Origin: Treponemataceae bacterium
GTDB taxonomy: Bacteria; Spirochaetota; Spirochaetia; Treponematales; Rectinemataceae
DNA: 64,000 nucleotides
Direction: 5' to 3'
Assembly: GCA_963678065.2 (NCBI GenBank)
Contig: CAXXVZ010000005.1
Coordinates: 1,120,001 to 1,184,000, forward strand
Shown: piece after piece, positions 404 through 21,805 of the stretch
Numbering within the stretch: the stretch's first letter is position 1
Layout: each line of letters starts with the position of its first letter
The notes under the pieces: model-generated
Told to the model about the DNA's origin: nothing
Database searches by the model: none
What the model saw: only the letters and a program-made list of their open reading frames with translations
Program-made: the position numbers and the translations under genes

Positions 404-465
404 GCCTAACCTTAAAGTTGAGCTGCAACGCGACACGCGTTGTCAGCTCGAACTTGGCGTTAGGC
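404..465 (-). other. attC-like recombination site (62 bp)
   Basis: Minus strand GCCTAAC-GCCAA-GTTCGAGC-TGACAACGCG-TGT-CGCGTTGCA-GCTCAAC-TTTAAG-GTTAGGC: R''/5/L''...L'/6/R' layout with two extrahelical bases. Confidence 0.85.
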
Positions 466-1019: not shown

Positions 1020-1570
1020 ATGATGTATCCTTGACTGGCTGGATTCCTATTACCGCTGAAGGGCGTATAAGTTTTATTGACTACCCCGGACTCAGCATTT
1101 GGCGCGGTCTGTCTCGGATCTTTATTGTGAATTGCTTCCCATGTCGTACCGGGAGCAGAGGCATCCACGATCTGTTTTGTTACTTCATCGCCTATCTGCC
1201 CTACGCCGTAGTTAACATGATCATTTGGCTTTTCATATGAGTAAAAATTCAAAACACCTGCATCACCTTGTCTGTTTGTATTTACATCCTTAAATTTTCC
1301 AACAAAATTCGAGTTTGCCATACCATTTGCAGTTAGGCGGTCAACGTCTGCTCCCATGGCCCTAAGTGAACCTATACCTACACCACTACAATCAGCTTTT
1401 GTTGTTGTGGTTCCCGAGCCATACTCTACGCCAACATATTCTCTAATCTTTTCCGCAAACTGCAAATTTAGGTCTGTGGGGCTTCTTAGTGAATTTGTAT
1501 CCCGATCATAGAATTCATCGCCGTACAGCTGAGCACCTTCAATCTCCCGCAACCCTGTCGGATCTGTGGA
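1001..1570 (-). pseudogene. Orphan Rhs C-terminal tip, NlpC/P60-like (papain-fold) peptidoglycan hydrolase
   Basis: Begins at TDPTGL; YVGVEYGSG...ADCSG (catalytic Cys) and DHV (His); no rhs core upstream. Confidence 0.75.
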
Positions 1571-1793
1571 CTTTACTGGATTCTCGCCCCGCTGTTTTTC
1601 TTCTCCACGAGCCACCTCCCCGGTTTCGGTTTTTTTGGTCTCAGCGAGCGAGGCATAGAGCAGATACAGCCACAGCGCCTCGGTGAAGGTCTGCAGCCAC
1701 CTCCGGAGAAACCCTTCCACTACGAGCAGTTCCACAGTCAGCTTGACGTGCTGCTGTGGCAGGAGAAGGGGCGCGCACCGCATGAAAGAGATT

Positions 1794-2795
1794 CTATCCT
1801 GGCCGACCTTCCGGGACAAGGCGGGCGAGCCTTTTGATATAGTCCCTGTCCACCTCCGCATAGATCGCCTGCTCCCTCGGGTGGTAGCGCCGATAGATCC
1901 GCTTAAGGTTCTCCGTCACGACGTGCGTGTACCGCGCCGTCGTCTCGACTCCTGCGTGACCCAAGAGTTCCTGGATCTGGCGCACGCTCACGCCGCGGCT
2001 TAAAAGATGGGTCGCGGTGGCATGCCGGACCGAGTGGGCCGACAGGGTCGGGTCGTCCATACCGAAGCGCCGCAGGAGGGTTCGGAAACGCTCACTCACA
2101 CTCGCTGGCCTCACATGGCTCCCTGTCCTCGGTCCGCAGGTCCCCGTGAATATCCAGGCCTGCGGATCATGGGCGCGGTTCCCGAGGTACAGAAGCAGCA
2201 CATCCCGCGCGACCTCCGAGATCGGCACGAGCCTGTCCTTGTCACCCTTGCCCCGCACGCGCATGATCCGGCGCTCGAAGTCCACGTCGCCCACCGTAAG
2301 GCCCGCAACTTCGCCCACACGAAGGCCAGCCGCGTACACGAGCTCGAAGAGCGCGCGATCCCGCAATCCCTGCGTCGTCGTCGTATCGAGCTCGTCAAGA
2401 AAGCGCTGCATCTCCGTTTCTGTGAACGCGCGGCGGCGTACAGACTCCGGGGGGAGCGGATCACCCAGTTGCCCGGCGGGGTTGTCGTCGATAAGCCCTG
2501 AGCGGTACAGACAGGCGTACAGAAGCCGTACCATCCCGAAGCGACTATTGACCGTCGTGTGCTTAAGCCGTTCTCCCGTCGTCTTCGACAGTCGCGCCGC
2601 GAGATCCTCGCGGTAGCCAAGGAGCTGCGCCGGCGTGACCTGACGTATATCGCCTATCGCGTGCTCTTCGGTCCAGCGGTAATACCCTATGATCGTAGCA
2701 CGCGCGTGGGCCATGTAGCACGCGCCGATCCGCCTGGCCACGAGGTCCTCGCTCACCAGGTGCAGTCCCAAAGCTTGTACGGCCTCGCCAGTCAC
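1794..2795 (-). CDS. XerD-like tyrosine recombinase, catalytic residues intact
   Basis: AGLRVGE, GKGDKDR, HSVRH, LLGH, TTARYTHV; N-terminal SAM-like domain. Confidence 0.93.
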   Translation of the reverse strand: MTGEAVQALGLHLVSEDLVARRIGACYMAHARATIIGYYRWTEEHAIGDIRQVTPAQLLGYREDLAARLSKTTGERLKHTTVNSRFGMVRLLYACLYRSGLIDDNPAGQLGDPLPPESVRRRAFTETEMQRFLDELDTTTTQGLRDRALFELVYAAGLRVGEVAGLTVGDVDFERRIMRVRGKGDKDRLVPISEVARDVLLLYLGNRAHDPQAWIFTGTCGPRTGSHVRPASVSERFRTLLRRFGMDDPTLSAHSVRHATATHLLSRGVSVRQIQELLGHAGVETTARYTHVVTENLKRIYRRYHPREQAIYAEVDRDYIKRLARLVPEGRPG

Positions 2796-3757
2796 GATCG
2801 GAACTCCCAGCTTCCGCGCGGGTGCGCCGCGTCCACCGCCGCGCGCAGGCTCTCCTTGCTCCGCCGCAGGTAGGTCTGTGTGCTGCCTAAGTTCCGAAAC
2901 CCGACCAAGATTTGCACGTGCCGAAGGTCGCAGCCTGACTCGACCAGGTGCGCCCCCAGGCTCGTCCGAAAGCCGTAGCTTGTGATCATCGGCAATCCCT
3001 CACTCGCACAGGTCTCGGCCAAAACCTCGTTGATCACCTGAGTCAGCCTCCCGTGCCCCGCGCCGAAGAGCGTGTGCGCATACCTCCGCTCGTACTCGTG
3101 AAACACAAGTTTCCGTCGCGGCAGATACTCCTTGAGCACCCCCGCCGCGTAGCTCGTCAGGAAGGCCGTCCGTCCCTGCCCCGAGCGCCCGCTCCGAACC
3201 CACACTGTCCGCTCGCGAAGATCAAGGTCAGCCGGTTCGAGCGCGGCCGCCTCACTCGCGTGCAAGCCCGCAGCGTACATGAGTTCCGCCGCCACGTGCA
3301 CCCGATAGGTCTTTACCACCTTCCACCACGGCCGCACCTCATCGAAGCGCGACAGGGCCGCAAGGAGTCTCGCCATCTCCTCGACCGTCAGCGCATTCTC
3401 CGACAGATGCTCTCCCACCCGCACCCGACGGATCTCGCGGAAGGGATTCGTCCGTATCGTCCCCGTCTTCACGAGGTAGTCGAAGAACCGCCTGGCCGCT
3501 TTCAGATGGTTGTTGATCGTCCCCGCGTTGTACGGCCGCCCTGTCGCTGCTGTCATCGTCGACAGCTTCACCTGGTAGCGCAGAGCCTCAGCAAGCCCTA
3601 CCTCCGCAACCTCGAGTTCCTCCGCTTCCAGCCATGAGCCGACGGTCCGCGCAAGCGTGCGTATCGACTCGTAACCCTGATCAGTTACCTTCGGCTGTTC
3701 TTCAGCGAGAAAGGCTTCGATCTGCGCCGAAAGCCGTACGGAGTATATGCCATCCAC
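2792..3757 (-). CDS. XerC-like tyrosine recombinase with degenerate active site (GTG start at 3757 chosen; ORF opens at 3826)
   Basis: Integrase-fold motifs but AGLHASE, SGRSG, YGFRT, LVGF; Tyr kept in TQTY. Confidence 0.88.
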   Translation of the reverse strand: MDGIYSVRLSAQIEAFLAEEQPKVTDQGYESIRTLARTVGSWLEAEELEVAEVGLAEALRYQVKLSTMTAATGRPYNAGTINNHLKAARRFFDYLVKTGTIRTNPFREIRRVRVGEHLSENALTVEEMARLLAALSRFDEVRPWWKVVKTYRVHVAAELMYAAGLHASEAAALEPADLDLRERTVWVRSGRSGQGRTAFLTSYAAGVLKEYLPRRKLVFHEYERRYAHTLFGAGHGRLTQVINEVLAETCASEGLPMITSYGFRTSLGAHLVESGCDLRHVQILVGFRNLGSTQTYLRRSKESLRAAVDAAHPRGSWEFRS

Positions 3758-3843
3758 GTTCGCCTCTCTTCCCCGCCGGAATTGCGCGACCAGATTGGTA
3801 ATTCCTTGTCGCGCCAGGGGCAACACTCGCTATCGGTAGTCAG

Positions 3844-3869
3844 TGCCCAGTTCTGCCCAGACTGACCAG
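3844..3869. repeat. Three short direct repeats TG(C/A)CCAG at 9-10 bp spacing
   Basis: tgcccag-ttc-tgcccag-ac-tgaccag just after the ATPase stop; also at 12605-12630. Confidence 0.5.
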
Positions 3870-4306
3870 ATTTATGCCGTTGATCCGGAGAGTCGTTCTG
3901 CCATCGCCTCAGGACTCGGAATCATCGACAGATCCACCGCCCCAATCTCCGCGTCCTCGCGAAGCCGGTAATAGGCTCGCGAGCGTTCCGAGCCCCCTCG
4001 CGCAATCGACACGTAGTCGTACTCGACGAGCTGCCGCAGACTCTGCTTGATCCATGTATGCCCCAGCCCGGTCAGCTCCCGTACCTGCCGCTGCGTGAAG
4101 CTCACCTCTTCAGCCCGTAAGTGCTGCGCTCTCGCCTCGCGGCCCACCCACGTACGCAACTCGCCGTACAGTGTGTAGCGTAATCTAGAAATACCCGAAA
4201 AGATCAAACTGGAATGGACAGAAAAATCGTCAGAATTCCCCATAAAAATCGTGGGGAGGAAGTGGCGATGAAAACCCTGTAGGATTTATCCAGCAGGGAG
4301 GAGGGA

Positions 4307-5779
4307 ATGCTCCACATGAACCAGATTGATCACGTCAAAGATTTGCAAAGGCAGGGCTATGGTCCCTGCGAGATCGCTGAACGGCTGGGAATCGATCGAA
4401 AAACAACAGCGAAGTATATGAAGCAGGAGGACTTCAACGCCTCTACCGAAGTGCCCCGCGAGCTTCCCTCGAAACTTGATCGATGGAAGCCAACCATCGA
4501 TCAATGGCTTGCCGAAGACCTGAAGATGCGTTTCAAGCAGCGCCATAGGGCCATGAGGATCCATACAAGGCTTCTGGAAGAACACCCCGACGACTACGAC
4601 TGCTCATATCCTTTGGTCCAGCGCTATGTCAAACGGCGGAAAGCGGCCAGGAAAGAAGCGGAGGGGTTTCTTGAGCTCGTCTGGTCGAAAGGCGAGGCGC
4701 AGGCCGATTTCGGAGAGGCAGAACTGATCGAGGCCGGCGTTCGAAGGACCGTCAAATACCTGACCTTGACCTTTCCCTTCAGCAATGCGGGCTTTACGCA
4801 GTGTTTCAGCGGCGAGACGGCCGAATGTGTTTCCCAGGGGCTCAAAGATATATTCAGCCACATAGGTGGCGTTCCCGCCAGGATCGTGTTCGACAACGCA
4901 ACGGGCGTAGGCAGACGGGTCCGCGACCGTGTCACCTTGAGCCAGCTTTTCCTTCGGTTCAAATGCCACTATGGCTTTGCGGTCAGCTTCTGCAACCCTG
5001 CTTCAGGCCATGAGAAAGGGAATGTCGAAAACAAGATCGGCTATGCGAGAAGGAACTTCTTCGTTCCTCTGCCGGTTGTGGACAGCCTCGAGTCTTGGAA
5101 CAAGGAATTGCTCGAAAAAGCGGCGAAAGATCATGACCGATCGCATTACAAGAAAAATCAGAATATTGCCGAGTTGTTCGAAGAGGAGCGGCAGTCTTTA
5201 GGGCTTTTGCCGGTGCGAAGCTTCATCGTCGAGCGTTTCGAGCGAGTATCCACGGATGGCTACGGAAAGTTCTGCATTGACGGAAAGCATTGGTATTCAA
5301 GCGCTCCCGAATGCGGGAACAGCGAAGTGACCGTAGGGCTCAAGGCGCATGAACTCGTCGTGTACCGCAGCGAAGGAACCCCGTTGTGTGTCCACCGAAG
5401 AGTCTATGGCGACGAGCGGAGCGACAGCTGCGATTACCGAACAAGCCTTGAAACCCTCATGAAGAAGCCTGGCGCATGGATCAATAGCGCCTTTAGGGCA
5501 GGCGTTGACGATACCATACGAGTCGCGATGGACGAACTCTCAAAGCCTGATCTGCGCAATGTGCTGAAAGTCCTGGTGAAAAGCAGTACGACCTTTGGGT
5601 TCGACGTCGCCATGACCTCGCTTGAGGAAGCGATTGCCCGAGGCCGGCTGGACAGTTTCAGCCTTAGCGCGGTTGCTTCCAGGGTCGCCTTTGATGGGCT
5701 TCACGGCATTCCCTCCGAGGGACCCGACCTCGGAGCCTACGATCGCGCCCTCATGAGCAACTCGGAGACCGTGTCATGA
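4307..5779 (+). CDS. istA: IS21 transposase IstA
   Basis: N-terminal HTH; QADFG, VFDNA, EKGNVE DDE motifs. Confidence 0.95.
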   Translation: MLHMNQIDHVKDLQRQGYGPCEIAERLGIDRKTTAKYMKQEDFNASTEVPRELPSKLDRWKPTIDQWLAEDLKMRFKQRHRAMRIHTRLLEEHPDDYDCSYPLVQRYVKRRKAARKEAEGFLELVWSKGEAQADFGEAELIEAGVRRTVKYLTLTFPFSNAGFTQCFSGETAECVSQGLKDIFSHIGGVPARIVFDNATGVGRRVRDRVTLSQLFLRFKCHYGFAVSFCNPASGHEKGNVENKIGYARRNFFVPLPVVDSLESWNKELLEKAAKDHDRSHYKKNQNIAELFEEERQSLGLLPVRSFIVERFERVSTDGYGKFCIDGKHWYSSAPECGNSEVTVGLKAHELVVYRSEGTPLCVHRRVYGDERSDSCDYRTSLETLMKKPGAWINSAFRAGVDDTIRVAMDELSKPDLRNVLKVLVKSSTTFGFDVAMTSLEEAIARGRLDSFSLSAVASRVAFDGLHGIPSEGPDLGAYDRALMSNSETVS

Positions 5780-6555
5780 GAAAAGCGCGTGTCAATCGTG
5801 CCGAACTGCGCAGCGAAATCTCCGTACTGCTGCGCAAGATGGCCTTCAGCCAGACCGCGGTAAAGATCTGCGAGGAAGAGGCCAAGGCACCCCAGGAAGA
5901 GTTTCTCCTGAAGATCCTGAAGCGAGAGATGGCTAACCGCGACGATGTCCGCAGGGCACGATTCCTTCATGAAGCGGCCTTCCCCGTCTACAAAACCTTC
6001 GAGGGCTTTGATTTCTCCTGCGTGAAGCTGCCGCCGGCGCTTTCGAAACAGGAAATGATGACCACCCAGTTCGTCGCCGAGAAGAAAAACTTGGTGCTTT
6101 ACGGCCCCGTTGGAACTGGAAAGACACATCTTGCCACAGCCCTTGGCGTCACCGCGTGCTCTCGCACCTTCCGTACCAGGTTCTTTACCGCTGCAGAGCT
6201 GGTGGTAAGGCTTTCCGAAGCCCTTAAGGAAGGCTCGCTTGAGCGGCTTGTTATGTCCATCGCTCGGGCTGATCTCTTGATCATAGACGAATGGGGCTAT
6301 GTCCCCGTCGACCGGCAAGGAGCCCAGCTCCTGTTCAGGATAATTTCCGATTCCTATGAGCGCCGAAGCGTTATTCTCACGACCAATCTTGAATTCTCCA
6401 AATGGGGGACAATCTTCACGGACGATCAGATGGCTGCCGCCATGATCGACAGGCTTGCCCACCATGGTCACATTATTCTCTTCGAAGGTGAAAGCTACCG
6501 GATGAAACACGCACTCATGCGGCAGAAAGGCCAGGCACAATTACCCACCGGCTGA
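5776..6555 (+). CDS. istB: IS21 helper ATPase IstB
   Basis: GPVGTGKT, LLIIDEWGY, TTNL, AMIDRL. Confidence 0.95.
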   Translation: MRKARVNRAELRSEISVLLRKMAFSQTAVKICEEEAKAPQEEFLLKILKREMANRDDVRRARFLHEAAFPVYKTFEGFDFSCVKLPPALSKQEMMTTQFVAEKKNLVLYGPVGTGKTHLATALGVTACSRTFRTRFFTAAELVVRLSEALKEGSLERLVMSIARADLLIIDEWGYVPVDRQGAQLLFRIISDSYERRSVILTTNLEFSKWGTIFTDDQMAAAMIDRLAHHGHIILFEGESYRMKHALMRQKGQAQLPTG

Positions 6556-8046
6556 TGGGTGTTTTTGTACGATTTTTTCGGGTATTTCGCCTTGACGAAA
6601 CACAGTACAGCCCCACCGCCCCCGCGGGTAGCTCCCGTACCGTCGAGCTCATCACCCCCTCCACCATGATCGTGTACGCTACCCGGTAGTCCTCCAGGTC
6701 GCAGCGGATGAAGCTCACTGCCCCCTCACGCTCCTCACGCTTCTGGTACTGCCTCAGAAAGCACACGCTCGCGATCAGATCCAGAAACCGGTCATGGTCG
6801 CGGCGGCTCCGCATGAGACTCGTCGGAAACCCCAGGTGCACCGCAAAGTCGTTCACGATCGCCACCTTCCGCACCAGCCGCTGCGCCGCCTGGTGCGCCC
6901 GTATGATCCGCTCCGTCTCTCCGCGCCCAGTCCGCAAGCGTTCCAGCGAATACTTCTGCCGCTGCGCCTCGTGGATCCGCGCAGTCTGGATCTTCGACTC
7001 GTCCGCGTTCACCACGAAGCACCGGCTCGCGTTCTCCGGATTCACCGCATGGCTCGTCCCCGACAGCACGCTCGACACCACCACCGGCGTCCTGACCACC
7101 CGGCTCTGCATCGTCCCCGTCTCCGGGTCCTTCATCGTCACCAGCCTCGACAGCTCCTTGCCCGACAGCATCTCCCGGATCTGGTGCTCCACCACCTCCC
7201 CGTGCACCGCTTCTCCCAGAATCAGAAACTTGTGGCTCAGGTCCTCGATGTAGTTCAGTGCCTGGTCCGACAGGCTCGTCACCGCCACCACCTCCTCGGG
7301 CGGCATAAGCTTCCGCACCGTCTCCACGAGATAGCTCTTTCCCGCCGCGGACTGCGACAGAATCAAGACCGAGATCGGATCGTCCAGCTTCCGGCTCGAC
7401 GCGCACAGGTACAGAAGCTGCTTATTCAGGTCCTCTCCCACGTAGCCCAACGCGCTGAGATCCTCCACGATCCGCTCAAACAGGCGCGGGTCGCGCAACA
7501 GCGACAGCCCCAGCTCGCGGTCGGCCGCGCTCATCGGGACGCCCGCCTTCGTATTTCCCCGCCGCAGGGCCTCGTCGCGCTCGCACTCGAGATTCTCAAG
7601 GATCAGCACGAGGTCCTTCTGTGCCCGCGCGAGCTCCCACCCGAAGCTCCGCGCCACCGCCTGCGCAAAGCCGCCCCTCGCCTTCGCCGCGTACAGGTCC
7701 ACCGTGTCGTAGTAGCTCATCATCCCTGCACTCGCCCGGATCGCCACCTTCAGGCTCGTCACAAACAGCTGCCTGACCCCGCCTATGCGGTACGTCATCG
7801 CCCCCACACGGAACACATGGAACAGCCCATCCCGCTCGACGTGCAGCTCCGGTCCATCCGTCTCGTCCATGAAGCCGGCCGCTTCGCCCGGTCTCGCCTC
7901 CTCCTCTGCTGCCCCTGCCGGGGGCGACTCCGGGGGAACTGCGTCACCTTCGGTGACGACCTTCCCCGCGGAGTTGGGGGGAAGAAACGCGGCCCCAGGA
8001 AGGGACTCATCAGCGACCGCGAGTACCCGCTCGCTCTGGTCTCCCC

Positions 8047-8331
8047 TCATACCGCACCACGCCGCCCGGAGCGCCGCTCCCGGTCAAAGCTCTTCTTCGC
8101 CTCGTGCACATAGCTGTTCACCTGCCCATACGCCGAGCGAAAGGCGTGCAGGTTCACCACCGCCCGCTTCCCCCAAAACTCACCCTGCGCCCGCCCAAGC
8201 CCCTCTCCCCGGAAGCTCATTCGACAGGCCAGCGATTCCGACACCGGAATGCAGCTCACCTCCTCCAGCGTACACCCTGCCATGATCAGATACGCCGCTT
8301 CGTACAGATCCGTTACCTCCGCAGTTTCCAT
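8047..8331 (-). CDS. Small protein (94 aa, DUF5659-like), possible directionality/DNA-binding factor
   Basis: AAGGAGG RBS before METAEVTDLYEAAYL; stop overlaps ATPase start; present in both units. Confidence 0.7.
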   Translation of the reverse strand: METAEVTDLYEAAYLIMAGCTLEEVSCIPVSESLACRMSFRGEGLGRAQGEFWGKRAVVNLHAFRSAYGQVNSYVHEAKKSFDRERRSGRRGAV

Positions 8332-8479
8332 CCCCCGCCTCCTTTTTGCGGGCAATCTCGTCATCTCCCTGTCCTGTATGCTATCCTGTCTTCGCGTCAT
8401 GACGAGGTTCCCTCGTTGTGTCCTCGCCCGTTTCCCCGAAGCATCCACCACGACCTCAGGGGAAACGGGCTCCTTTGTA

Positions 8480-8569
8480 CCTGACATAAAACCATGTCAA
8501 GTACTATTATTGGTTTTGAGTATTATACATCATGTATTATATCGTCAAGCGGTAGGGTATACTTTTTCT
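8480..8569. promoter_or_regulatory. Divergent promoter/operator region
   Basis: AT-rich; palindromes TGACAT-N6-ATGTCA and ATACAT-C-ATGTAT; TATACT 6 nt before XRE ATG; TTGACG...TATAAT on minus strand. Confidence 0.55.
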
Positions 8570-8977
8570 ATGCCACAGCGACCGAAATATATTCTGCCGG
8601 ATATCTCCGAATCCTCTCACAATGTCGGTCAAAATATTGCCGCACTGCGCAAAAAAAAAGGACTCAGCCAAAAAGAACTGGCTCTGAAAATCGGCATCAC
8701 CCAGGCCTTGCTTTCACACTATGAAACCGCCCGTCTGAGTATTCCCGTCGAGGTTGTCATTCAGATTTCCATTTCGTTGAACGTACACGCGGATGTGATA
8801 TTGGGAATCGGAGCATCGGCACCGCTCGACGATGACTCGCCAAGCCGCAGAATTGTGCAGCGGGCGAAACTGATCGAGCGTCTTCCCGCCTTCGACCAGA
8901 AAGCCCTGCTCAAAACCATCGACAATGCGTTGAAAGGCGCCGGCATCACAACGGAAGATCCAAAAGTCTCTCACTGA
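8570..8977 (+). CDS. XRE-family HTH transcriptional regulator
   Basis: IAALRKKKGLSQKELALKIGITQALLSHYE. Confidence 0.92.
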   Translation: MPQRPKYILPDISESSHNVGQNIAALRKKKGLSQKELALKIGITQALLSHYETARLSIPVEVVIQISISLNVHADVILGIGASAPLDDDSPSRRIVQRAKLIERLPAFDQKALLKTIDNALKGAGITTEDPKVSH

Positions 8978-9381: not shown

Positions 9382-9444
9382 GCCTAACCTTCCGCTTAAA
9401 CGGCGAGGGCTTTTGGCCCGAGTCCGGTTGAAGCCGCGTTAGGC
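9382..9444 (-). other. attC-like site (63 bp, slightly degenerate)
   Basis: Minus strand GCCTAAC-GCGG-CTTCAACC...GTTTAAG-CGGAAG-GTTAGGC; immunity stop codon TAA lies inside R''. Confidence 0.75.
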
Positions 9445-9708
9445 TTTGGGGTCAGGCCCCAAGGGGGCTTCTTTACGAAAAATGCTCAAATCCGACTTCA
9501 TTTGCCTAAGGAGAAAACTGCATGCCTCAGCCTCTGAGGAGAATTGCTTAATGTCTTTTTTTTGCCCTCGTTCAAAGAAGTATATCTCCCAACATCCACC
9601 TTCCTCGATTAGGCATGTTCGATCTTCGCGAAATAGCTTGTTGAATGAATACCACGAACTCGGTACATTCAGTTGGTTCAATTCTCGTTCGAGCTCTTTT
9701 ATATTCAT
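9439..9708 (-). CDS. Immunity protein for the TNT tip
   Basis: ATGA overlap with toxin stop; 89 aa; WEIYFFERG...FSSEAEAC. Confidence 0.75.
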   Translation of the reverse strand: MNIKELERELNQLNVPSSWYSFNKLFREDRTCLIEEGGCWEIYFFERGQKKDIKQFSSEAEACSFLLRQMKSDLSIFRKEAPLGPDPKA

Positions 9709-10331
9709 TTCAACACCTCGACCAATTTAGCATCGATAAGGCTTCCCAAAGTGCTACGGAACATGTATTGAATACCACCACCGGCACTTCCATAATATGG
9801 CCCGGCAATACCAGCTTTTACTTCTAGATCGATCTTCGATCTATATGCAGTGTATTCACCAGAGTTCCATGGGGGTAATGCTCTTTCTTCTTTTGGAGTC
9901 CCTATCGGAGAAGCATATGAACCACGTGGATTCCCATATCTATCAAACGTCGAACCTGCGGGTAGGGTTGTTTCCCATGAAGCGCCAAACAGAAAGCCAT
10001 CAAACAAAGGATAGCAGACGTCTTCGACCAATGCTGGCGGTGGCGGCAATATCCCGGCTGTATTTAGCCCACCATATAGCCCAGTTACAACTGCAACAGC
10101 GGCGGTGGCAATATTATTAGTTGCACTAGTTACTACGTTTTTAGCAAGCTTCGCAGCCGATTCAAGCGAATTTATTATATTGCTAACAACATTTTCAGCA
10201 TCCGGCGGATCGCTCGAAGGAACAATATTCCCGGTACCAAGTCCTGATATTAGGCTGCTATCGGACGTCTCGCCCGTTGATTCGAACCGTTTCAGATCCC
10301 CCATCCCTGCCAACCCCGTGGGATCCGTGAA
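9705..10331 (-). pseudogene. Orphan Rhs tip, TNT (DUF4237) NAD+ glycohydrolase domain
   Basis: Begins FTDPTGL; LPAGSTFDRYG...YASP.GTP.EERALPP...GGGIQY. Confidence 0.88.
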
Positions 10332-10554
10332 CTTTACTGGATTCTCGCCCCGCTGTTTTTCTTCTCCACGAGCCACCTCCCCGGTTTCGGTTTTTTTGGT
10401 CTCAGCGAGCGAGGCATAGAGCAGATACAGCCACAGCGCCTCGGTGAAGGTCTGCAGCCACCTCCGGAGAAACCCTTCCACTACGAGCAGTTCCACAGTC
10501 AGCTTGACGTGCTGCTGTGGCAGGAGAAGGGGCGCGCACCGCATGAAAGAGATT

Positions 10555-11556
10555 CTATCCTGGCCGACCTTCCGGGACAAGGCGGGCGAGCCTTTTGATA
10601 TAGTCCCTGTCCACCTCCGCATAGATCGCCTGCTCCCTCGGGTGGTAGCGCCGATAGATCCGCTTAAGGTTCTCCGTCACGACGTGCGTGTACCGCGCCG
10701 TCGTCTCGACTCCTGCGTGACCCAAGAGTTCCTGGATCTGGCGCACGCTCACGCCGCGGCTTAAAAGATGGGTCGCGGTGGCATGCCGGACCGAGTGGGC
10801 CGACAGGGTCGGGTCGTCCATACCGAAGCGCCGCAGGAGGGTTCGGAAACGCTCACTCACACTCGCTGGCCTCACATGGCTCCCTGTCCTCGGTCCGCAG
10901 GTCCCCGTGAATATCCAGGCCTGCGGATCATGGGCGCGGTTCCCGAGGTACAGAAGCAGCACATCCCGCGCGACCTCCGAGATCGGCACGAGCCTGTCCT
11001 TGTCACCCTTGCCCCGCACGCGCATGATCCGGCGCTCGAAGTCCACGTCGCCCACCGTAAGGCCCGCAACTTCGCCCACACGAAGGCCAGCCGCGTACAC
11101 GAGCTCGAAGAGCGCGCGATCCCGCAATCCCTGCGTCGTCGTCGTATCGAGCTCGTCAAGAAAGCGCTGCATCTCCGTTTCTGTGAACGCGCGGCGGCGT
11201 ACAGACTCCGGGGGGAGCGGATCACCCAGTTGCCCGGCGGGGTTGTCGTCGATAAGCCCTGAGCGGTACAGACAGGCGTACAGAAGCCGTACCATCCCGA
11301 AGCGACTATTGACCGTCGTGTGCTTAAGCCGTTCTCCCGTCGTCTTCGACAGTCGCGCCGCGAGATCCTCGCGGTAGCCAAGGAGCTGCGCCGGCGTGAC
11401 CTGACGTATATCGCCTATCGCGTGCTCTTCGGTCCAGCGGTAATACCCTATGATCGTAGCACGCGCGTGGGCCATGTAGCACGCGCCGATCCGCCTGGCC
11501 ACGAGGTCCTCGCTCACCAGGTGCAGTCCCAAAGCTTGTACGGCCTCGCCAGTCAC
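10555..11556 (-). CDS. XerD-like tyrosine recombinase, intact
   Basis: Same protein sequence as 1794-2795. Confidence 0.93.
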   Translation of the reverse strand: MTGEAVQALGLHLVSEDLVARRIGACYMAHARATIIGYYRWTEEHAIGDIRQVTPAQLLGYREDLAARLSKTTGERLKHTTVNSRFGMVRLLYACLYRSGLIDDNPAGQLGDPLPPESVRRRAFTETEMQRFLDELDTTTTQGLRDRALFELVYAAGLRVGEVAGLTVGDVDFERRIMRVRGKGDKDRLVPISEVARDVLLLYLGNRAHDPQAWIFTGTCGPRTGSHVRPASVSERFRTLLRRFGMDDPTLSAHSVRHATATHLLSRGVSVRQIQELLGHAGVETTARYTHVVTENLKRIYRRYHPREQAIYAEVDRDYIKRLARLVPEGRPG

Positions 11557-12518
11557 GATCGGAACTCCCAGCTTCCGCGCGGGTGCGCCGCGTCCACCGC
11601 CGCGCGCAGGCTCTCCTTGCTCCGCCGCAGGTAGGTCTGTGTGCTGCCTAAGTTCCGAAACCCGACCAAGATTTGCACGTGCCGAAGGTCGCAGCCTGAC
11701 TCGACCAGGTGCGCCCCCAGGCTCGTCCGAAAGCCGTAGCTCGTGATCATCGGCAATCCCTCACTCGCACAGGTCTCGGCCAAAACCTCGTTGATCACCT
11801 GAGTCAGCCTCCCGTGCCCCGCGCCGAAGAGCGTGTGCGCGTACCCCCGCTCGTAGCCCCTGAACACAACCTCACGCCGGCAGAGATACTCCTTGAGCAC
11901 CCCCGCCGCGTAGCTCGTCAGGAATGCCGTCCGCCCCTGCCCCGAGCGCCCGCTCCGAACCCACACCGTCCGCTCGCGAAGATCAAGGTCAGCCGGTTCG
12001 AGCGCAGCCGCCTCACTCGCGTGCAAGCCCGCAGCGTACATGAGTTCCGCCGCCACGTGCACCCGATAGGTCTTTACCACCTTCCACCACGGCCGCACCT
12101 CATCGAAGCGCGACAGGGCCGCAAGGAGTCTCGCCATCTCCTCGACCGTCAGCGCATTCTCCGACAGATGCTCTCCCACCCGCACCCGACGGATCTCGCG
12201 GAAGGGATTCGTCCGTATCGTCCCCGTCTTCACGAGGTAGTCGAAGAACCGCCTGGCCGCTTTCAGATGGTTGTTGATCGTCCCCGCGTTGTACGGCCGC
12301 CCTGTCGCTGCTGTCATCGTCGACAGCTTCACCTGGTAGCGCAGAGCCTCAGCAAGCCCTACCTCCGCAACCTCGAGTTCCTCCGCTTCCAGCCATGAGC
12401 CGACGGTCCGCGCAAGCGTGCGTATCGACTCGTAACCCTGATCAGTTACCTTCGGCTGTTCTTCAGCGAGAAAGGCTTCGATCTGCGCCGAAAGCCGTAC
12501 GGAGTATATGCCATCCAC
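11553..12518 (-). CDS. XerC-like recombinase with degenerate active site (ORF opens at 12587)
   Basis: Same substitutions as 2792-3757. Confidence 0.88.
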   Translation of the reverse strand: MDGIYSVRLSAQIEAFLAEEQPKVTDQGYESIRTLARTVGSWLEAEELEVAEVGLAEALRYQVKLSTMTAATGRPYNAGTINNHLKAARRFFDYLVKTGTIRTNPFREIRRVRVGEHLSENALTVEEMARLLAALSRFDEVRPWWKVVKTYRVHVAAELMYAAGLHASEAAALEPADLDLRERTVWVRSGRSGQGRTAFLTSYAAGVLKEYLCRREVVFRGYERGYAHTLFGAGHGRLTQVINEVLAETCASEGLPMITSYGFRTSLGAHLVESGCDLRHVQILVGFRNLGSTQTYLRRSKESLRAAVDAAHPRGSWEFRS

Positions 12519-12632
12519 GTTCGCCTCTCTTCCCCGCCGGAATTGCGCGACCAGATTGGTAATTCCTTGTCGCGCCAGGGGCAACACTCGCTATCGGTAG
12601 TCAGTGCCCAGTTCTGCCCAGACTGACCAGAT

Positions 12633-14891: not shown

Positions 14892-15299
14892 ATGCCACAG
14901 CGACCGAAATATATTCTGCCGGATATCTCCGAATCCTCTCACAATGTCGGTCAAAATATTGCCGCACTGCGCAAAAAAAAAGGACTCAGCCAAAAAGAAC
15001 TGGCTCTGAAAATCGGCATCACCCAGGCCTTGCTTTCACACTATGAAACCGCCCGTCTGAGTATTCCCGTCGAGGTTGTCATTCAGATTTCCATTTCGTT
15101 GAACGTACACGCGGATGTGATATTGGGAATCGGAGCATCGGCACCGCTCGACGATGACTCGCCAAGCCGCAGAATTGTACAGCGGGCGAAACTGATCGAA
15201 CGTCTTCCCGCCTTCGACCAGAAAGCCCTGCTCAAAACCATCGACAATGCGTTGAAAGGCGCCGGCATCACAACGGAAGATCCAAAAGTCTCTCACTGA
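14892..15299 (+). CDS. XRE-family HTH regulator
   Basis: Same protein sequence as 8570-8977. Confidence 0.92.
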   Translation: MPQRPKYILPDISESSHNVGQNIAALRKKKGLSQKELALKIGITQALLSHYETARLSIPVEVVIQISISLNVHADVILGIGASAPLDDDSPSRRIVQRAKLIERLPAFDQKALLKTIDNALKGAGITTEDPKVSH

Positions 15300-15329: not shown

Positions 15330-15590
15330 GGCACCATCAAACACAGTCGCCCGACTGCGCCTAATTCTCGGTTGGCGGGGAGCGCCGTCCCAAGCCGTGC
15401 TTGGGAGAGCGCTCCCCCAAATCCGCTTTCGCGGACTTCGCCAACCTACGCATTAGACGCTATCGGGTCTGCCTTCCCCTTCGGCTCAATACTCGAAATT
15501 CACAAGTATGGAGTCAAGCATGCGGATGGTTGTCTTCCCATAGCCAAGGGGCTGCGCGACTACTGTCGCGATGCCCCGCGGCAGCTCTTC
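15330..15590. repeat. Conserved structured non-coding region, copy C (100-bp hairpin 15359-15458; no terminator or attC)
   Basis: Aligns to 9008-9267. Confidence 0.85.
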
Positions 15591-15662: not shown

Positions 15663-16262
15663 TCAACCAGTCAGTGTTTTTTCAAAATTTACACCAGTTA
15701 TTTTTTTCTTCTGAATAGCCTTTTTTAGTTTTTCACTTACATAAAGGCCAGACGTAATCTTCCAAAGACTGTGATGTGCAGGCTTATGGAAAACACTGAA
15801 TTTTTCAACCTTATCTATAGAAAAGCACGGTTTCATAATCCGATCGGTACCTCGGACATACATTGTTTTTTGCACATCGATAACATCAAGCATTTTTGAG
15901 AATCGTAAAATAAAGTATATGCGCTGTTCTCCCCCACCATTTATTTTTGCTCTTATCCAATTAATTCCTTCATTACCAGATAAGTTTTCTTCAATGACAA
16001 CCTTTAGCCTCTCAGAAAATAAGGGCCAAGCCAAACTATTCGGTAAATAGTCGATCCATAGTTCTTTGATTTCTGAAAGGTCAGAGGACCTAATAAGCCC
16101 ATCTCCCTCTTTCGTCAATTTCACCAATGAAAACTCAAATGGCATTTCAGAAACACCATCGATCTCTGAAATCAACTCATGTGCCAACCGAGTTCCTTCT
16201 GGTGCAAACGCACTTGCTACTGGCGTGGAATCTGCACCACCAAATAGATAGTAATTCATCAT
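15663..16262 (-). CDS. Immunity protein (Imm11/DUF1629-like) for the AHH tip
   Basis: ATGA overlap with rhs1 stop; LFSERLK..IE, LDVID, LYVSEKLKKAI...ITGVNF. Confidence 0.78.
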   Translation of the reverse strand: MMNYYLFGGADSTPVASAFAPEGTRLAHELISEIDGVSEMPFEFSLVKLTKEGDGLIRSSDLSEIKELWIDYLPNSLAWPLFSERLKVVIEENLSGNEGINWIRAKINGGGEQRIYFILRFSKMLDVIDVQKTMYVRGTDRIMKPCFSIDKVEKFSVFHKPAHHSLWKITSGLYVSEKLKKAIQKKKITGVNFEKTLTG

Positions 16263-19200
16263 TGCCACCAAGCTTTTCTTAACATCCCAGGGTTTTCTAT
16301 AACTGGAGTCTTTACATATTGGTTGAACAATTCAAGGAACTTTGCCTGACTAGTTCCGGCGCCAACCGCTGCATCTTGCATACCCTGTTGAACAAAATCA
16401 TGATAGGCATCTGGATGTCGGCCTAAATGAGGCATCAACTCTTTGTTCCATGCTTCATCCAGCTTCAGTCCAAATTTCTCTGCAATATCTTCCATTTGTT
16501 GGGTAAACTTAGAGTTTTTATTAGTTGCAAAGTGATGAAGTTGTTCTTCGTAAATTAAGCAATAATCATTCAATAAATTGGCAACATTATTTCCATATAG
16601 CAGTCTCAGTACAGAATCGCTAGCATTGTTCATCCCCTGCAGGAGAGAACCGACTGCTTTTGCTACATCTTCAATAACCTCCCTTCTTCCTTCTGCTCTT
16701 TCTGCTTTCTCAAATTCCTTGACCCTATTTTCAGAATCCCCACTCGAAGCACTCAATTTGCCATTATTATCAGATAAAATGTGCCCGCCATGGTGATCAT
16801 CATCTACTTCATGAGCTAGTCCCGAGGGATCTGTGAACGAGAGCGGATTGTTGCCACAGTAGACGAACCAGTTGCCCCCATCCCTGACCGGGTCCTCAGA
16901 GTAGAACCTCCCCGCCACACAATCATAGTACCGCGCATTGAAGTAGTACAGTCCCGTCGCGTCTCGCTCCTTCCCCGTGTACGACACATCCTGACTCCCG
17001 TCGTACCCGTTGTAGTTCGTCACCGTCGAGCCACCCCACACCGCATAGTCGATCTTCGCCTTCACCGTCCCCGCCGTGTCCGTGACTGCCCTCCGCGATC
17101 CCAGGTTGTCCTGCCACACGTACTCTAGCCGCTCCGTGTTCCCCACGTAGTCCTTCACGTACCGTCCGACTTCCATACCCCCAAGCCGCACGTTCACCTG
17201 CGCCGTCTTCCACGTGCTCCCCTCCATCCTCTCCTTCAGCAGTATCTCGTTCCCCTCGTACACGTACAGCGTCGTCGTCACCGCTCCCGTCGTCGACGTC
17301 TCATCTTTCCGATACCGCAGCCCGTCCGGGTAGTACCGATAGCTGTCCGTCTGCGTTCCACCTGCGTTCCTCGCCAGGTCTCCCATACCCTCCAGCCGCC
17401 CGTACACGTCCCACGTAAGGCTCGCGTACCGGTTCTGCACACCCGTCACCCACCCCCGACTCGCGTCGTCCGTCACGGCTTGCGAACTCGGATGCGTGAT
17501 GTTCCGTAGGAGCATGCTGTTCACTCCCGACACCGGCGCATAGCCATAGCTCGCCGGATCTGTCCCCGTCGACTGTGTCAGGTTCCCGATCGCGTCGTAG
17601 CCGTAGCTTGTTCCCCCTCCCGTCGACAGGCGGTTCATCCCGTCGTACCCGTAGCTCACCCCGTCCCGCCCCGTCACGTTCCCCATCCGATCGTACGTGT
17701 AGCTCCCGTCGCACAGGCTCCCCGGATTGTCCACCGAACTCATTCGCAGCCACGTGTCGTACCCGTACACCGCCGTTCCCCCCGACGTCCCGTACGATAC
17801 CGCCGTCCGTCCTCCCCAGAACGACAGTCCTGTCCGCCCTAGCAGGTTCGACGAACTGTCCGACACCGACAGCGTGTTCGTGTTCCCGCCATACCCTGTT
17901 CCGCCGAAGTACGGTGTCGCATAGTTCACGGCCTTCGCGTACCCACCAAACCCCGTCACCGTCACACTCGCCGGATTGTTCGCCAGGTCGTAGGTCCTCA
18001 CTACCGTCGCCGTCTTCGACCCCGCCTGAGTCGGGACGGTCCGACTCTCTTTGGCCGGTATCCCGTTCACCCCGTATTCCCACGCCACCGTCTGGCTCGG
18101 CGTCGATTCACCCCCTCGCTGCTCAGCCACCGTGGCCGGACCATACTGGCAGTACGCGCTTGTCACTACGAGCGTCGCGGGCTGCGGGCTCCTCGTCGAC
18201 GCTGTCGTCCTCGTCCGCTCCATCCCCGCCTTATTGTACGTGTAACTCACTGTGTCGCCGTTCAGCTCCGTCGCGACACGCACCCGTCCGTCCGGGTAGT
18301 ACGTGTTCGACTTACTCCCCCGCCCCATAGGGTAGCTTTCCGTCTGCAGCCGTCCCGCACGCGTGTACACGTACGTGTACGCTTCCCCGTTCGGCATCGT
18401 CTTCGACGTCACCTGTCCCGTAAAATTATAAGCGTACGACGTCGTCCGGCTGTTCCCTCCCCCGTTCGTCCCGTCCCACTGGATCTCCGAGCTTGTCCGT
18501 CCCAGCCAGTCTTTCTGCGTCCTCGTCCTCGTGTACGTCGACCCATCCCGGTACCTGTCCACCGTCACCGTGTTCTGGCTGTCGTCGTAGGCCGTCGCCA
18601 CCATCGTCACCTGTGAGCCGGAGCTCGGCCCCGACTGCACCTGCACAGGCCGCCCCAGCACATCGTAGCTGTAGCTCGTCACAAGTTGCGTCGAAAGACC
18701 TGCGTCCAGATACACCGTCTCGCTCTTCACGAGCGATGGCATCGCCATATCCCACGTCTTCACCACCTTCCCGATCGCCACCTCTCCTGACCCCGTGTAT
18801 GTCGCGTCCCTGCTCGCCGTATCCGGCTTGTACGGTATCTCCTGCAGAAGCCGTCCGTAGAAATCGTACCGCGATTCGGTGCGGAATCCTTTCCCGTCCG
18901 TCGCCGTCGACCACAGTCCATTCGTGTCCTGCCCATACTCGTACCGCCCGAGTGTCGTCTCTGTCCCGCTCACCACCCGTGACTTCTTCGTCACTCGTCC
19001 CAGTCCATCACACTCGAGCTTACTCGTCGCTGCGGGATACTTCGTCCCGTCGATTGCGGTCCCCTGTGAATCCGTGACGACCGTCCCTTCCTGCAGCCGT
19101 CGTCCCGCAAGGTCATAATCATACGTGGTGACGACACGATCATTCGTTCCGATGTTCGCCCCCAGCTCCTTCGTCTGTGTCGTCACGAACGAGCTCTTCC

Positions 19201-21805
19201 ACCCGCTCCCGTAGCTGAACGAGGTCGTCGTCGTACTTGAGTCCCCCCAGGGCTCCGTCACGCTCGCAAGCGTATTCGTCGAGCTGTTCCACGCACTCGT
19301 CACCGTCTTGGTGTTGGCCGTCCCGTTCGCATAGTATTCAAGATCTTTCGTCTCGAGCAGCTTCAGGTCTGATTGGTATTTCCGGTATGTCTTGAAGCAC
19401 GATCCTGAAGCCTGCTCGACCGCCTCTCCCGCTATGATCCCGAAGCCTTTCACCAGGTTGTCCGTGAAGTTGTTCGTCGATGTGTACGGATTGTCCCAGA
19501 AGGTGGTGTCAGACGTAAGCGTATTGAGGTAGGCCGTGTATGTACTTCCCGCAAGGCTGTTCTGCGTCCGCGTCCGCCGCCCATCGCTGTCGTACGAATG
19601 CGTCAGCGTGTACCGCGATGTACCGGAATCCCCGATGTAGACATATTCGTACTGCGTGCGATAGCTCCCAAGTAACGAGGAAGTCGGGGTGAATGAGCGC
19701 CCTGTTTTCGTATAGAAGTCACTTGAGTTCTTGTACGTGATATCCGTTCCCACGCCAAGGTATTCTCTGTCAGGCGCACTACCAGCATGGGAAAACTGTA
19801 CTTCGCGCTTTGTTATCGCCGTCTCACTACCACTAACCCGGTACGTCGCAATCGTCGTCTTCGACGGAAAGATATCCCACGCCGTTGGGCATCCTGTCGT
19901 CGAACGCTGATAATCCGAAGATGTGAACGCAGATTGTCCATACGTCGATTCATAGCTGTAATAGTCTTTCGCGTACTCCGTCGATCCGGACTGTTCCTTG
20001 CGGATGACGTTCGTCACCTTCGGTTTGTTTTCATAGTATCGATCCCAAAATTCATTTCTATCTCCTGGCGGATCGACGTCATTGGAATGATAGTACGTAT
20101 TATACCCATTCGGATGGAACGAAATCCCGAACGTATATTTCGAGTACCCTTTCCCCGGCGATTGCACTTCGATGTAGTCCCCTGTCACTCCCGAACTCAG
20201 CGAGTACCCGTAGGTCGTCGAACGCAACACCGTGCTGTACGTCGACTCGTTCGACAGGCTCGGCGTGAACGAGGTGATGGTCTGCGTGATCGGCACCGTT
20301 CCCAGTTCATCGATCGCAATGATCCGCCCCGACGAGTCGAGTGTCTTCCGCTGCAGAAACAGATCCCCCGGATTCAGCGTCGTCCCGTTCGTGGTCGACG
20401 ACAGGATGTACACGATCTTTGTCTGACCATTCGATCCCGCGTAGCTGTAAATCTTCACCGCACGTCCGTCCGTGTGGTCCATCAGCGTCAAGGTCGTCCC
20501 CGAGTAGCTGAACGTGACGCCGTTCACCAGGGACGGATCCCAGATCTTCGACACATACCCCGATCCCGTGAACTCTGCCTCTCGTCCGTCCGGATAGAAG
20601 AGCCGCGCAGACGTCGCCTTGTAGTTGTACCAATACGTCGTAATGGGATCATCGTCTCGCGGTTGGTATGTACTCCATGAAACCAATTCATATATGGTAA
20701 AGCGACCTGTGTACCCTACTTCCGGAATCCGTACCGTCAGGGTTGTACCGGATTTCCGTATGATGTACCGATCGGTTTGAATATCGGTATCCGATGCCCA
20801 GCTTCTCCAGCCATTCATCACATTTGACAAGTCAAAGACTGTCCCGTTGGGGATCATCAATTTCAACGTATCGTAGCTGCCATAGGTACAGAATGGTAAA
20901 TCGTAGCTCCACCCTTTCGCGTACTCATACGGGCTGTTGTTTTTGGGGCTGACACAGGTGATACCCGACGAATTTATACCACTCGTTAACGTTTGGACAT
21001 ACAATGAATATACGTAGTCCGAATTAAAACTCGACTCGAGACCGAATCCGATCCCCCGTGCGGGAATGTCCACCTCGGTGCTGTCCATGAGGAGCGTCCC
21101 GAAGTACGGGTCCACCCGCTCACTCCTCGATCCTCCCAAGCCCACGAGCGTTCCCGCTTCATTGACTCTGCTGAATGATAATCCAGTCTGATAATAGCTG
21201 AAGTGCTCGATGGATGCCGTAATGGTGTGCGTAACCATGTCCTGGCTCAGCTTCGGCACAACCTCCCACCGCTTCACGCTTTCATTGTACCAGAACACCT
21301 GGATCTGGCTCTCCGGCATCCCCTCTGGACAGGTGTACGGCAGCGTCAGCCTCGCAGGCTTCGTGAACCGCAGCTTCTCAGGCCCAAACTCCCACACCGG
21401 ACCCGTGATCCCCATCCCGTCGATCTGTCCGTTCCGCCCTGCCGCCGGTCCTCCTACCTGCCTCACCGTCATCGCCAGTCCCCGGTTCCCCAGTCCCTGC
21501 CCCGTCTTCGCAAACGTACTCGCCGCCACACGCCCGCCCGACTTCCCCGACTGCCTGACCGTCGCCACCGACAGGTCCACCGCCTCTGAATCGAACTCGA
21601 TCTGTCCCGCCCCCGTGCCGAAGCTGAACGTGTGCCGTCCCTTCACGAGCGGCGTGTACGAGTCCGTCCCGTCCGTTCCCCGTTCGATCCGGTACGCGCC
21701 TCCGGCAGTCGCCGCTTCCGGCGCCCGTGTCTGTGCCCATGCGCCCATGGCAGCGCAGGCGAACACGATGCAGGCTCTCAGCTTCTTCCTCGCGGGCTTG
21801 TTCAT
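16259..21805 (-). CDS. Rhs/YD-repeat polymorphic toxin 1: Sec signal, ZU5-like domain, Rhs core, AHH-type HNH nuclease tip
   Basis: YD repeats, YTGKERDATGLYYFNARYYD, NNPLSFTDPSG; tip LHHFAT...N...HLGRH...YH. Confidence 0.93.
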   Translation of the reverse strand: MNKPARKKLRACIVFACAAMGAWAQTRAPEAATAGGAYRIERGTDGTDSYTPLVKGRHTFSFGTGAGQIEFDSEAVDLSVATVRQSGKSGGRVAASTFAKTGQGLGNRGLAMTVRQVGGPAAGRNGQIDGMGITGPVWEFGPEKLRFTKPARLTLPYTCPEGMPESQIQVFWYNESVKRWEVVPKLSQDMVTHTITASIEHFSYYQTGLSFSRVNEAGTLVGLGGSRSERVDPYFGTLLMDSTEVDIPARGIGFGLESSFNSDYVYSLYVQTLTSGINSSGITCVSPKNNSPYEYAKGWSYDLPFCTYGSYDTLKLMIPNGTVFDLSNVMNGWRSWASDTDIQTDRYIIRKSGTTLTVRIPEVGYTGRFTIYELVSWSTYQPRDDDPITTYWYNYKATSARLFYPDGREAEFTGSGYVSKIWDPSLVNGVTFSYSGTTLTLMDHTDGRAVKIYSYAGSNGQTKIVYILSSTTNGTTLNPGDLFLQRKTLDSSGRIIAIDELGTVPITQTITSFTPSLSNESTYSTVLRSTTYGYSLSSGVTGDYIEVQSPGKGYSKYTFGISFHPNGYNTYYHSNDVDPPGDRNEFWDRYYENKPKVTNVIRKEQSGSTEYAKDYYSYESTYGQSAFTSSDYQRSTTGCPTAWDIFPSKTTIATYRVSGSETAITKREVQFSHAGSAPDREYLGVGTDITYKNSSDFYTKTGRSFTPTSSLLGSYRTQYEYVYIGDSGTSRYTLTHSYDSDGRRTRTQNSLAGSTYTAYLNTLTSDTTFWDNPYTSTNNFTDNLVKGFGIIAGEAVEQASGSCFKTYRKYQSDLKLLETKDLEYYANGTANTKTVTSAWNSSTNTLASVTEPWGDSSTTTTSFSYGSGWKSSFVTTQTKELGANIGTNDRVVTTYDYDLAGRRLQEGTVVTDSQGTAIDGTKYPAATSKLECDGLGRVTKKSRVVSGTETTLGRYEYGQDTNGLWSTATDGKGFRTESRYDFYGRLLQEIPYKPDTASRDATYTGSGEVAIGKVVKTWDMAMPSLVKSETVYLDAGLSTQLVTSYSYDVLGRPVQVQSGPSSGSQVTMVATAYDDSQNTVTVDRYRDGSTYTRTRTQKDWLGRTSSEIQWDGTNGGGNSRTTSYAYNFTGQVTSKTMPNGEAYTYVYTRAGRLQTESYPMGRGSKSNTYYPDGRVRVATELNGDTVSYTYNKAGMERTRTTASTRSPQPATLVVTSAYCQYGPATVAEQRGGESTPSQTVAWEYGVNGIPAKESRTVPTQAGSKTATVVRTYDLANNPASVTVTGFGGYAKAVNYATPYFGGTGYGGNTNTLSVSDSSSNLLGRTGLSFWGGRTAVSYGTSGGTAVYGYDTWLRMSSVDNPGSLCDGSYTYDRMGNVTGRDGVSYGYDGMNRLSTGGGTSYGYDAIGNLTQSTGTDPASYGYAPVSGVNSMLLRNITHPSSQAVTDDASRGWVTGVQNRYASLTWDVYGRLEGMGDLARNAGGTQTDSYRYYPDGLRYRKDETSTTGAVTTTLYVYEGNEILLKERMEGSTWKTAQVNVRLGGMEVGRYVKDYVGNTERLEYVWQDNLGSRRAVTDTAGTVKAKIDYAVWGGSTVTNYNGYDGSQDVSYTGKERDATGLYYFNARYYDCVAGRFYSEDPVRDGGNWFVYCGNNPLSFTDPSGLAHEVDDDHHGGHILSDNNGKLSASSGDSENRVKEFEKAERAEGRREVIEDVAKAVGSLLQGMNNASDSVLRLLYGNNVANLLNDYCLIYEEQLHHFATNKNSKFTQQMEDIAEKFGLKLDEAWNKELMPHLGRHPDAYHDFVQQGMQDAAVGAGTSQAKFLELFNQYVKTPVIENPGMLRKAWWQ

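Follow-up and report, generated by a model that had tools for sequence, protein, structure and literature searches.

The stretch of DNA analysed herein (the window, 64,000 nucleotides from a Treponemataceae bacterium) harbors two divergent Rhs toxin genes, rhs1 and rhs2, and a minus-strand array of toxin tips, immunity genes and recombinase-bearing units that begins with rhs1 (Table 1). The array runs from the rhs1 core joined to tip 1 (AHH), through Imm11, a cargo repeat and the body of unit 1, to an element end joined to tip 2 (TNT family), which is followed by an immunity gene, a second copy of the element, an end joined to tip 3 with its immunity gene and, finally, a recombinase-less end (mini-end) joined to tip 4 (Amidase_6) with its immunity gene. 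The mini-end runs on to the left of the window, where it reaches a fifth junction; beyond this lie tip 4 and the fourth putative immunity gene. Each unit is ordered as tip, immunity gene, cargo, XRE regulator, small ORF, Rep/helicase-like gene, int2, int1 and end, and the tandem elements are fused in frame at Rhs NP....DPxG codons without a core stub. The DPxG motif is presumably that of the Rhs aspartyl autoprotease, and the junction places its Asp on the incoming tip.

Searching the genome itself with tblastn returned just two element copies and two Rhs cores. Self-BLAST pairs the rhs genes (16817-21889 vs 37386-32299) as well as the units (10311-12932 vs 1550-4171); rhs1 and rhs2 are near-identical over the 2947 bases that lead to the junction, as are the unit ends over 2.6 kb. 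Across the junctions the GC content drops from ~0.61 in the core and element body to 0.41-0.48 in the tips. Cargo repeats with 83-99% identity follow each immunity gene, and rhs2 has its own tip, Imm26 and a cargo repeat of the full-element type, without an element body. Of the element genes, the 579-aa protein shows similarity to the C-terminal part of CHC2/Toprim primase proteins (PF27228 on Atlas clusters), and the product of the 146-aa ORF is a candidate directionality or replication accessory factor.

Between the divergent rhs genes lies a type II secretion/pilus cluster (21893-32207; secretin, ATPase, GspF, GspG and prepilin peptidase), which is a possible export route; the N-termini of both rhs1 and rhs2 resemble Sec signal peptides. 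Past rhs2 we observed a ParE toxin-antitoxin pair, an IS110 remnant and a tRNA (38982-40500), and an Rfam scan of window positions 1-40500 gave one tRNA and nothing else. The rhs-secretion block may be an island beside the dnaA/gyrB origin region.

Table 1 Features of the rhs loci and the tandem array (window positions)
Feature	Position	Strand	Remarks
rhs1, 1848 aa, Rhs core and tip 1 (AHH nuclease)	16259..21805	-	TIGR03696, PF14412
Junction rhs1 core|tip 1 (attL-like, unit 1)	16827..16852	-	core arm AACAAT-CC, 7-mer GCTCTCG (16844-16838), tip arm TTCACAGATCC
Immunity gene 1 (Imm11)	15663..16271	-	
attC-like hairpin, 100 bp, end of non-coding cargo repeat	15359..15458	-	ATTAGGC variant; z -6.5
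XRE/HTH_3 regulator, unit 1	14892..15299	+	
Conserved ORF, 146 aa	14369..14809	-	without Pfam family
Rep/helicase-like protein, 579 aa	12633..14372	-	
int2	11553..12587	-	tyrosine-recombinase fold, intact ORF
int1	10555..11556	-	tyrosine recombinase
Promoter-like TTGTCC-17-TAGAAT	10552..10580	-	at int1 stop, pointing into displaced tip
Junction unit 1 end|tip 2 (attR-like)	10321..10346	-	element arm GAGAAT-CC, 7-mer AGTAAAG (10338-10332), tip arm TTCACGGATCC
Tip 2 (TNT-family domain)	9705..10331	-	without Rhs stub
Putative immunity gene 2	9439..9708	-	by position and GC; no Pfam match
attC-like site over Imm2 stop (GCCTAAC...GTTAGGC)	9382..9444	-	weak fold; z -1.6
Unit 2 body	1794..8977	-	97-99% identical to unit 1; HTH (+), 146-aa ORF, Rep/helicase-like gene, int2 (2792-3826), int1 (1794-2795)
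IS21 (istA/istB)	4172..6605	+	splits Rep/helicase-like gene of unit 2
Junction unit 2 end|tip 3 (attR-like)	1560..1585	-	GAGAAT-CC AGTAAAG, tip arm TCCACAGATCC
Tip 3 and putative immunity gene 3	495..1570	-	tip 1570-1001, immunity gene 1019-495
attC-like site after Imm3, canonical, 62 bp	404..465	-	z -6.4
Start of recombinase-less element end (mini-end)	1..140	-	
rhs2, 1872 aa	32383..38001	+	3' part of core near-identical to rhs1, tip differs
Junction rhs2 core|tip	37351..37376	+	AACAAT-CC GCTCTCG, tip arm GCCACGGATCC
Imm26, attC-like site, cargo repeat, larger attC-like site	37991..38899	+	then no element body
attC-like site after Imm26	38471-38530	+	
Larger attC-like site in cargo repeat of rhs2	38773-38872	+	

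Junctions at the Rhs NP....DPxG codons

The original prediction had placed a candidate attachment (att) site with almost no core homology inside the Rhs autoprotease codons, and the sequences and coordinates that it gave for four junctions are all correct. Its observation that identity in both paralog pairs breaks within 1 nt of the same G was likewise reproduced, with the first tip-side mismatch at +1 in the rhs pair and +2 in the unit pair, and exact identity leftward from this G over 279 and 1410 bases, respectively. A fifth junction, absent from the prediction, lies in the same array just left of the window (G000:C5:1119941, minus strand) and reads GAGAGA CC TCTATCC|TTCAC GGATCC, with GACC and not ATCC as its left arm. 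The junction at 1571/0 is not an assembly artefact, since a contig from a second study bridges it (run X9, 708-2168). When contigs of four of the ten listed runs were compared with window positions 1-20000, no excision or circle joint and no empty site were seen among the matches listed; because rare variants tend to be lost from assembled contigs, a circle joint could well exist without showing in this comparison. One groundwater run showed a different tip start beside position 16827. The four junctions mark the borders of what are probably small mobile elements, lying in frame inside Rhs toxin genes.

We compared 13 stub-less element ends, three from the array itself (units 1 and 2 and the mini-end) and ten from spirochaete genomes and metagenomes elsewhere, including the orphan end L169, whose own element is off the contig and whose on-contig int genes belong to another clade (that of the AAGKG motif, see below). 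Three ends were excluded as ambiguous (L101 with TC for CC; L097 and L011 with a few Rhs-like bases before Pro), and in L094 and L095 the sequence ends before the junction. Rhs codons before Pro are found in none of the 13 ends, so that a fixed insertion point common to relatives, the mark of a site-specific integrative element, is seen throughout. At -6 to -4 GAG is invariant, as is CC (both 13/13), and in-frame stops often lie just upstream; core arms read AAC-AAT-CC, AAC-GAC-CC or ATG-AAC-CC. Breakpoints scattered over other genomes would have spoken against an att site and were not seen, as 10/10 elements with downstream sequence in the two nearest int1 sub-clades end at the same codons, on the Rhs Pro codon and without a stub, ~120-300 bases after int1.

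On the tip side, fully degenerate codon use, which would point to a constraint on the protein only, was not seen either. The junctions were set against control Rhs NP..DP sites, in which T at position 3 of the 7-mer is forced by the selection rule. The tip arm CACRGATCC is present at 13/17 junctions and 5/67 controls, among Thr codons ACR accounts for 14/14 at the junctions vs 8/16 in the controls (p=0.003), and GAT among the Asp codons for 14/14 vs 11/16, although p-values overstate here because the 17 junctions are mutually related and differ from the controls in wobble GC (63% vs 43%). An att site within the autoprotease codons is thus supported by both the fixed stub-less ends and the synonymous constraint.

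The predicted form of that site fared less well. Its ATCC left arm occurs in 2/13 element ends, where the consensus is instead GAG-A-N-A-CC, and the pattern ATCC-N12-RGAT is found at 11 places in the window (18 strand matches vs 5.95 expected), 7 of which are not junctions. The full inverted repeat is present at 4/17 stub-less junctions vs 9/67 controls (p=0.29, subject to the same kinship), and the site is asymmetric, its arms not being inverted repeats. Nor did we find support for the idea that the element end mimics the core motif (ENPVK versus NNPLS), since the element arm differs from the core arm; the Rhs-codon look of the seven bases after CC likely reflects sharing with rhs targets, because these bases read P-[LVM]-x in 13/13 non-coding ends. 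Judged from the aligned junctions, the site reads better as an arm ending in CC, a variable 7-bp segment and YYCACRGATCC. A refined pattern has four matches vs 0.05 expected, a figure that is no independent test as the pattern was drawn from the same junctions.

An explanation without any att site can be built on the published Rhs model (Jackson et al. 2009, PMC2935791), in which homologous recombination of a circular intermediate supplies a new tip while the previous one is moved downstream. Tip replacement via a circle and tandem tip-immunity arrays are common to that model and our array. However, displacement needs core homology and the accessible part of the paper notes no integrase, whereas here the breakpoint is fixed, every unit has recombinases and the core fragment of variable length expected before orphan tips is lacking in 13/13 ends. 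Were host homologous or microhomology-driven recombination to swap the tips nonetheless, the motif would be a protein constraint of the autoprotease, and it is true that the tip arm is coding too and that in many relatives the tip is preceded by 20-330 aa of Rhs sequence. Several of these "stubs", though, start sharply at one clade-specific motif, and this reading accounts neither for 13 ends without an Rhs codon before Pro, nor for GAG and CC being invariant in non-coding DNA, nor for the bias at synonymous positions; we regard it as very improbable.

The prediction had further likened two crossovers, G|TT, to integron recombination, while allowing for chance. Integron attC and attI are short recombination sites with little homology, and the genome encodes an IntI above cut-off (G000:C3:97196) with attC-like sites at C3:111959 and 116550. 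In the window, attC-like hairpins lie directly 3' of three immunity genes and larger variants end the cargo repeat (Table 1). A host integron integrase might on these grounds have made the junctions at G|TT secondary sites, but G|TT is rare (2/17 junctions vs 10/67 controls), GTTRRRY is absent, the tips do not start with the TTAGGC of their attC, and single-strand folding gave no hairpin at the junctions (z -0.76 to +1.29). We therefore rejected IntI as the junction maker, which is hardly credible on these data. A simple scanner found attC-like sites in 5/126 element loci and 2/150 other loci, so they are no general feature of the elements. Some hairpins have an ATTAGGC/GCCTAAT variant core, and others follow immunity genes in relatives (L169:1093, L093:3711, L212:165). 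Four dispersed 135-bp GCCTAAC...GTTAGGC repeats with attC-like ends also occur on other parts of the contig (G000:C5:773133, 828717, 843176 and 913201). Speculatively, excision between two attC-like sites would pair an element with the tip that it displaced.

Recombinases, the variable 7-bp segment and a proposed mechanism

The catalytic set R-K-H-R-H-Y of int1 is intact (PF00589, E 2e-40), as it is in every complete copy aligned. In contrast to the expected R-K-H-R-H/W-Y, both window copies of int2 have H-R-Y-R-F-Y, with four residues lost, and int2 is here likely an inactive, non-catalytic partner. It has lost K, H and H in the sister locus L089 and is catalytically intact in most relatives; besides the window and L089, only two members of another clade have a degenerate int2, and its role is therefore not uniform. 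As candidate assignments for int1, we rejected an IntI (TIGR02249, 88 bits vs a cut-off of 265) and host XerCD acting at dif (188/335 and 185/330 bits vs cut-offs; arms not inverted repeats).

We consider it very probable that toxin tips are swapped site-specifically at these Rhs codons. In the mechanism that we propose, the element would excise as a circle whose attP is the element end joined to its own tip. This end|tip site would recombine with a core|tip site via the element's own tyrosine recombinase, with int1 as the catalyst of strand exchange, and integration would fuse the new tip, including the DPxG Asp, in frame to the core, whilst pushing the old tip and its immunity gene behind the inserted element. 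Repeated rounds of insertion would build the tandem array. A promoter-like TTG..-17-TA...T at the int1 stop, found in 10/10 elements checked (window included), points outward and would keep the displaced immunity gene expressed. An open frame also starts at an ATG within int1 and extends through the element end to the displaced tip (9705-10622 and 1001-1861, minus strand), but this 94-codon leader may be chance because most relatives have stops there.

Three 7-mers occur in the one array, namely GCTCTCG in both rhs genes, AGTAAAG in both full elements and TCTATCC in the mini-end. The first two differ at 5/7 positions, so the complete elements match neither rhs target; those of the mini-end and the rhs genes both encode P-L-S and differ at third positions only. 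The right border of the 7-mer is fixed by the window, in whose two paralog pairs it stays with the left partner. Its left border would be fixed by identities that begin at CC in two other genomes: in L010, which is a complete insertion, the sequence common to attL and attR is exactly CCGGTGAACT, and in G280 the core (L217) and the element end (L169) are identical over 27 bases from CC onwards. In these two, the only other pairable genomes, core and end have the same 7-mer; in G187 the only rhs found differs from the element end in its 7-mer and sits on another contig. The reading frame is preserved with either 7-mer, the first base of each being the wobble position of the Pro codon.

Seven bases is a normal overlap length for tyrosine recombinases. 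On balance we lean towards reading the 7-mer as a strand-exchange overlap that tolerates mismatches, because three 7-mers occur in the array and the two complete elements agree with neither rhs gene. Cuts would fall after CC and before base 8, flanking the overlap; mismatches would be tolerated like CTnDOT coupling sequences, and replication would leave either partner's 7-mer at either junction. For comparison, the overlap of IntDOT is 7 bp long and includes a variable 5-bp coupling sequence (PMC2817482). Against a tolerant overlap stand the identical 7-mers of L010 and G280, which strict homology also predicts, and homologous recombination at the shared cargo repeat could have produced the mismatch in the array afterwards.

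These two points belong to an alternative with the same element and site but an overlap that requires homology, the unlike 7-mers having come later through circles entering by homologous recombination via the cargo repeat. The cargo repeats after each immunity gene would provide for this, and the outermost pair, rhs core and mini-end, agrees in P-L-S. Yet the only complete elements are precisely those that match neither rhs target, and the rhs2 tip is followed by cargo of the full-element type; we think this alternative unlikely. Somewhat less likely still is a single strand-pair exchange by int1 at the border between 7-mer and tip, resolved by replication or host enzymes, in which the 7-mer stays with the left partner and no overlap homology is needed. 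Integrons and Xer-exploiting phages offer analogies, the loss of R, K, H and H from int2 (K, H and H in L089) and the Rep/helicase-like protein of the element would fit, and the 7-mer always follows the left partner in the window. On the other side, single-strand folding of the site gave no structure, most relatives have two intact recombinases, and such an exchange leaves unexplained both the Rhs-like 7-mers of the non-coding ends and the start of identity at CC in L010 and G280. A tolerant overlap remains our preferred reading of the 7-mer.

Relatives, known systems and implications

Matches to the Rep/helicase-like protein were found in 5/69 genomes of the family, 8/401 of the order and 28/401 of the phylum (the own genome included in each), and in 37/72,556 plasmid records. 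The int1 protein alone recovered no related loci from genome contigs, and the Rep/helicase-like protein none from viral contigs. The same gene order was found in other genome and metagenome loci, and a quick version of an int1 tree placed the window together with L089, next to a clade of ten rows. In some relatives the element includes a ParA-like gene (L010:6353-7117), and the right ends of L010, L093, L107, L113 and L171 share TCTTTGAC and CACGCAC motifs, which are kept in the mini-end and absent from the full units.

Tip cassettes of other clades start elsewhere. Those of the sister clade L266, L267, L268 and L269-L271 (G933, G895, G986) start at YYxNARWYD codons of the Rhs core, and others at DGxxWY (L272, L277, L278) or F.GKE (L105). 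A 9.3-kb element of G933 occurs at the YYxNAR site with two different Rhs-like left flanks and two different displaced tips, its own tip being the same in both places. In L169 (G280), a related element with a degenerate int2 lies in tandem at an AAGKG motif inside a toxin tip (614-628, 8997-9017, 17380-17400), a target outside the Rhs core. An Enterobacter plasmid (NZ_CP074172.1, L289) carries tandem copies of a more distant, 7.7-kb single-XerC relative (XRE-primase-XerC-TA). They interrupt cdiA at the VENN motif, where a 13-bp direct repeat is found at 8231-8243, 15916-15928 and 23601-23613; the end of this element supplies an in-frame leader for the displaced tip that resembles a signal peptide. 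We tentatively suggest, as a reading about which we are close to undecided, that the window represents one clade of a wide undescribed family that exchanges polymorphic-toxin tips and carries XRE, primase/helicase and one or two XerC-like recombinases. The att site of each clade would be a motif of the carrier protein (Rhs NP..DPxG, YYxNAR or DGxxWY; CdiA VENN), the window clade would have a mismatched 7-bp overlap and one dead recombinase, and the attC-like sites in its cargo could let host IntI re-pair elements with displaced tips.

Members of the Tn554 family have two tandem tyrosine recombinases and repeat-less asymmetric ends with a 6-7 bp end segment from the target, and insert into one coding motif, with radC as target and a TnpC protein. 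The two tandem recombinases, the asymmetric ends and the insertion into one coding motif are shared by the elements described here, whose 7-mer would correspond to the end segment, and which differ in targeting rhs and not radC, in lacking a recognised TnpC, in their Rep/helicase-like gene and in restoring an in-frame fusion. RIT elements have three tandem recombinases and terminal inverted repeats, and this class was rejected as there are two recombinases, a third large gene that is no recombinase and no terminal inverted repeat. CTnDOT/IntDOT has a 7-bp overlap, to which the 7-mer after CC would correspond; it varies from site to site beside a conserved dinucleotide and tolerates heterology (PMC2817482, which also mentions Tn916 coupling sequences). 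However, CTnDOT encodes a single integrase, its core arms are inverted and it has conjugation genes (PMC2817482), whereas the elements here encode two short recombinases, have arms that are not symmetric and insert into a toxin gene, and domain annotation of their genes gave no conjugation module of the CTnDOT/Tn916 kind. The elements would work much as IntDOT or Tn554 do, but belong to neither family, nor to the integrons, the Xer-exploiting elements or the RIT elements.

Integrase or XerC/D-like genes have been noted beside orphan toxin-immunity pairs, Rhs/CDI and poly-immunity loci, and site-specific recombination has been suggested for cdi loci; the accessible parts of these papers define no element, attachment site or crossover (PMC5727410, PMC4927057, PMC3482391). 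Searches of the open literature returned no description of an Rhs attachment site of this kind, and subscription papers or supplements beyond it (such as Additional File 1 of PMC3482391, on XerC/D neighbours) could hold one. What appears new is a candidate attachment site with a corrected consensus, belonging to a variant of site-specific integrative elements.

Ever since the displacement model of 2009, which invoked homologous recombination, it has been an open question how new tips reach Rhs/CDI genes, and later papers report integrases nearby and no site. Toxin swapping, commonly ascribed to homologous recombination, becomes testable with small plasmids now that the 26-bp site is defined, two recombinases are named and a circular form is predicted. 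Domain-shuffling tools could profit from a recombinase able to join reading frames at a protein motif where homology is slight. If true, the "orphan" tip arrays would be traces left by elements that reward their host with a new weapon and preserve its old immunity.
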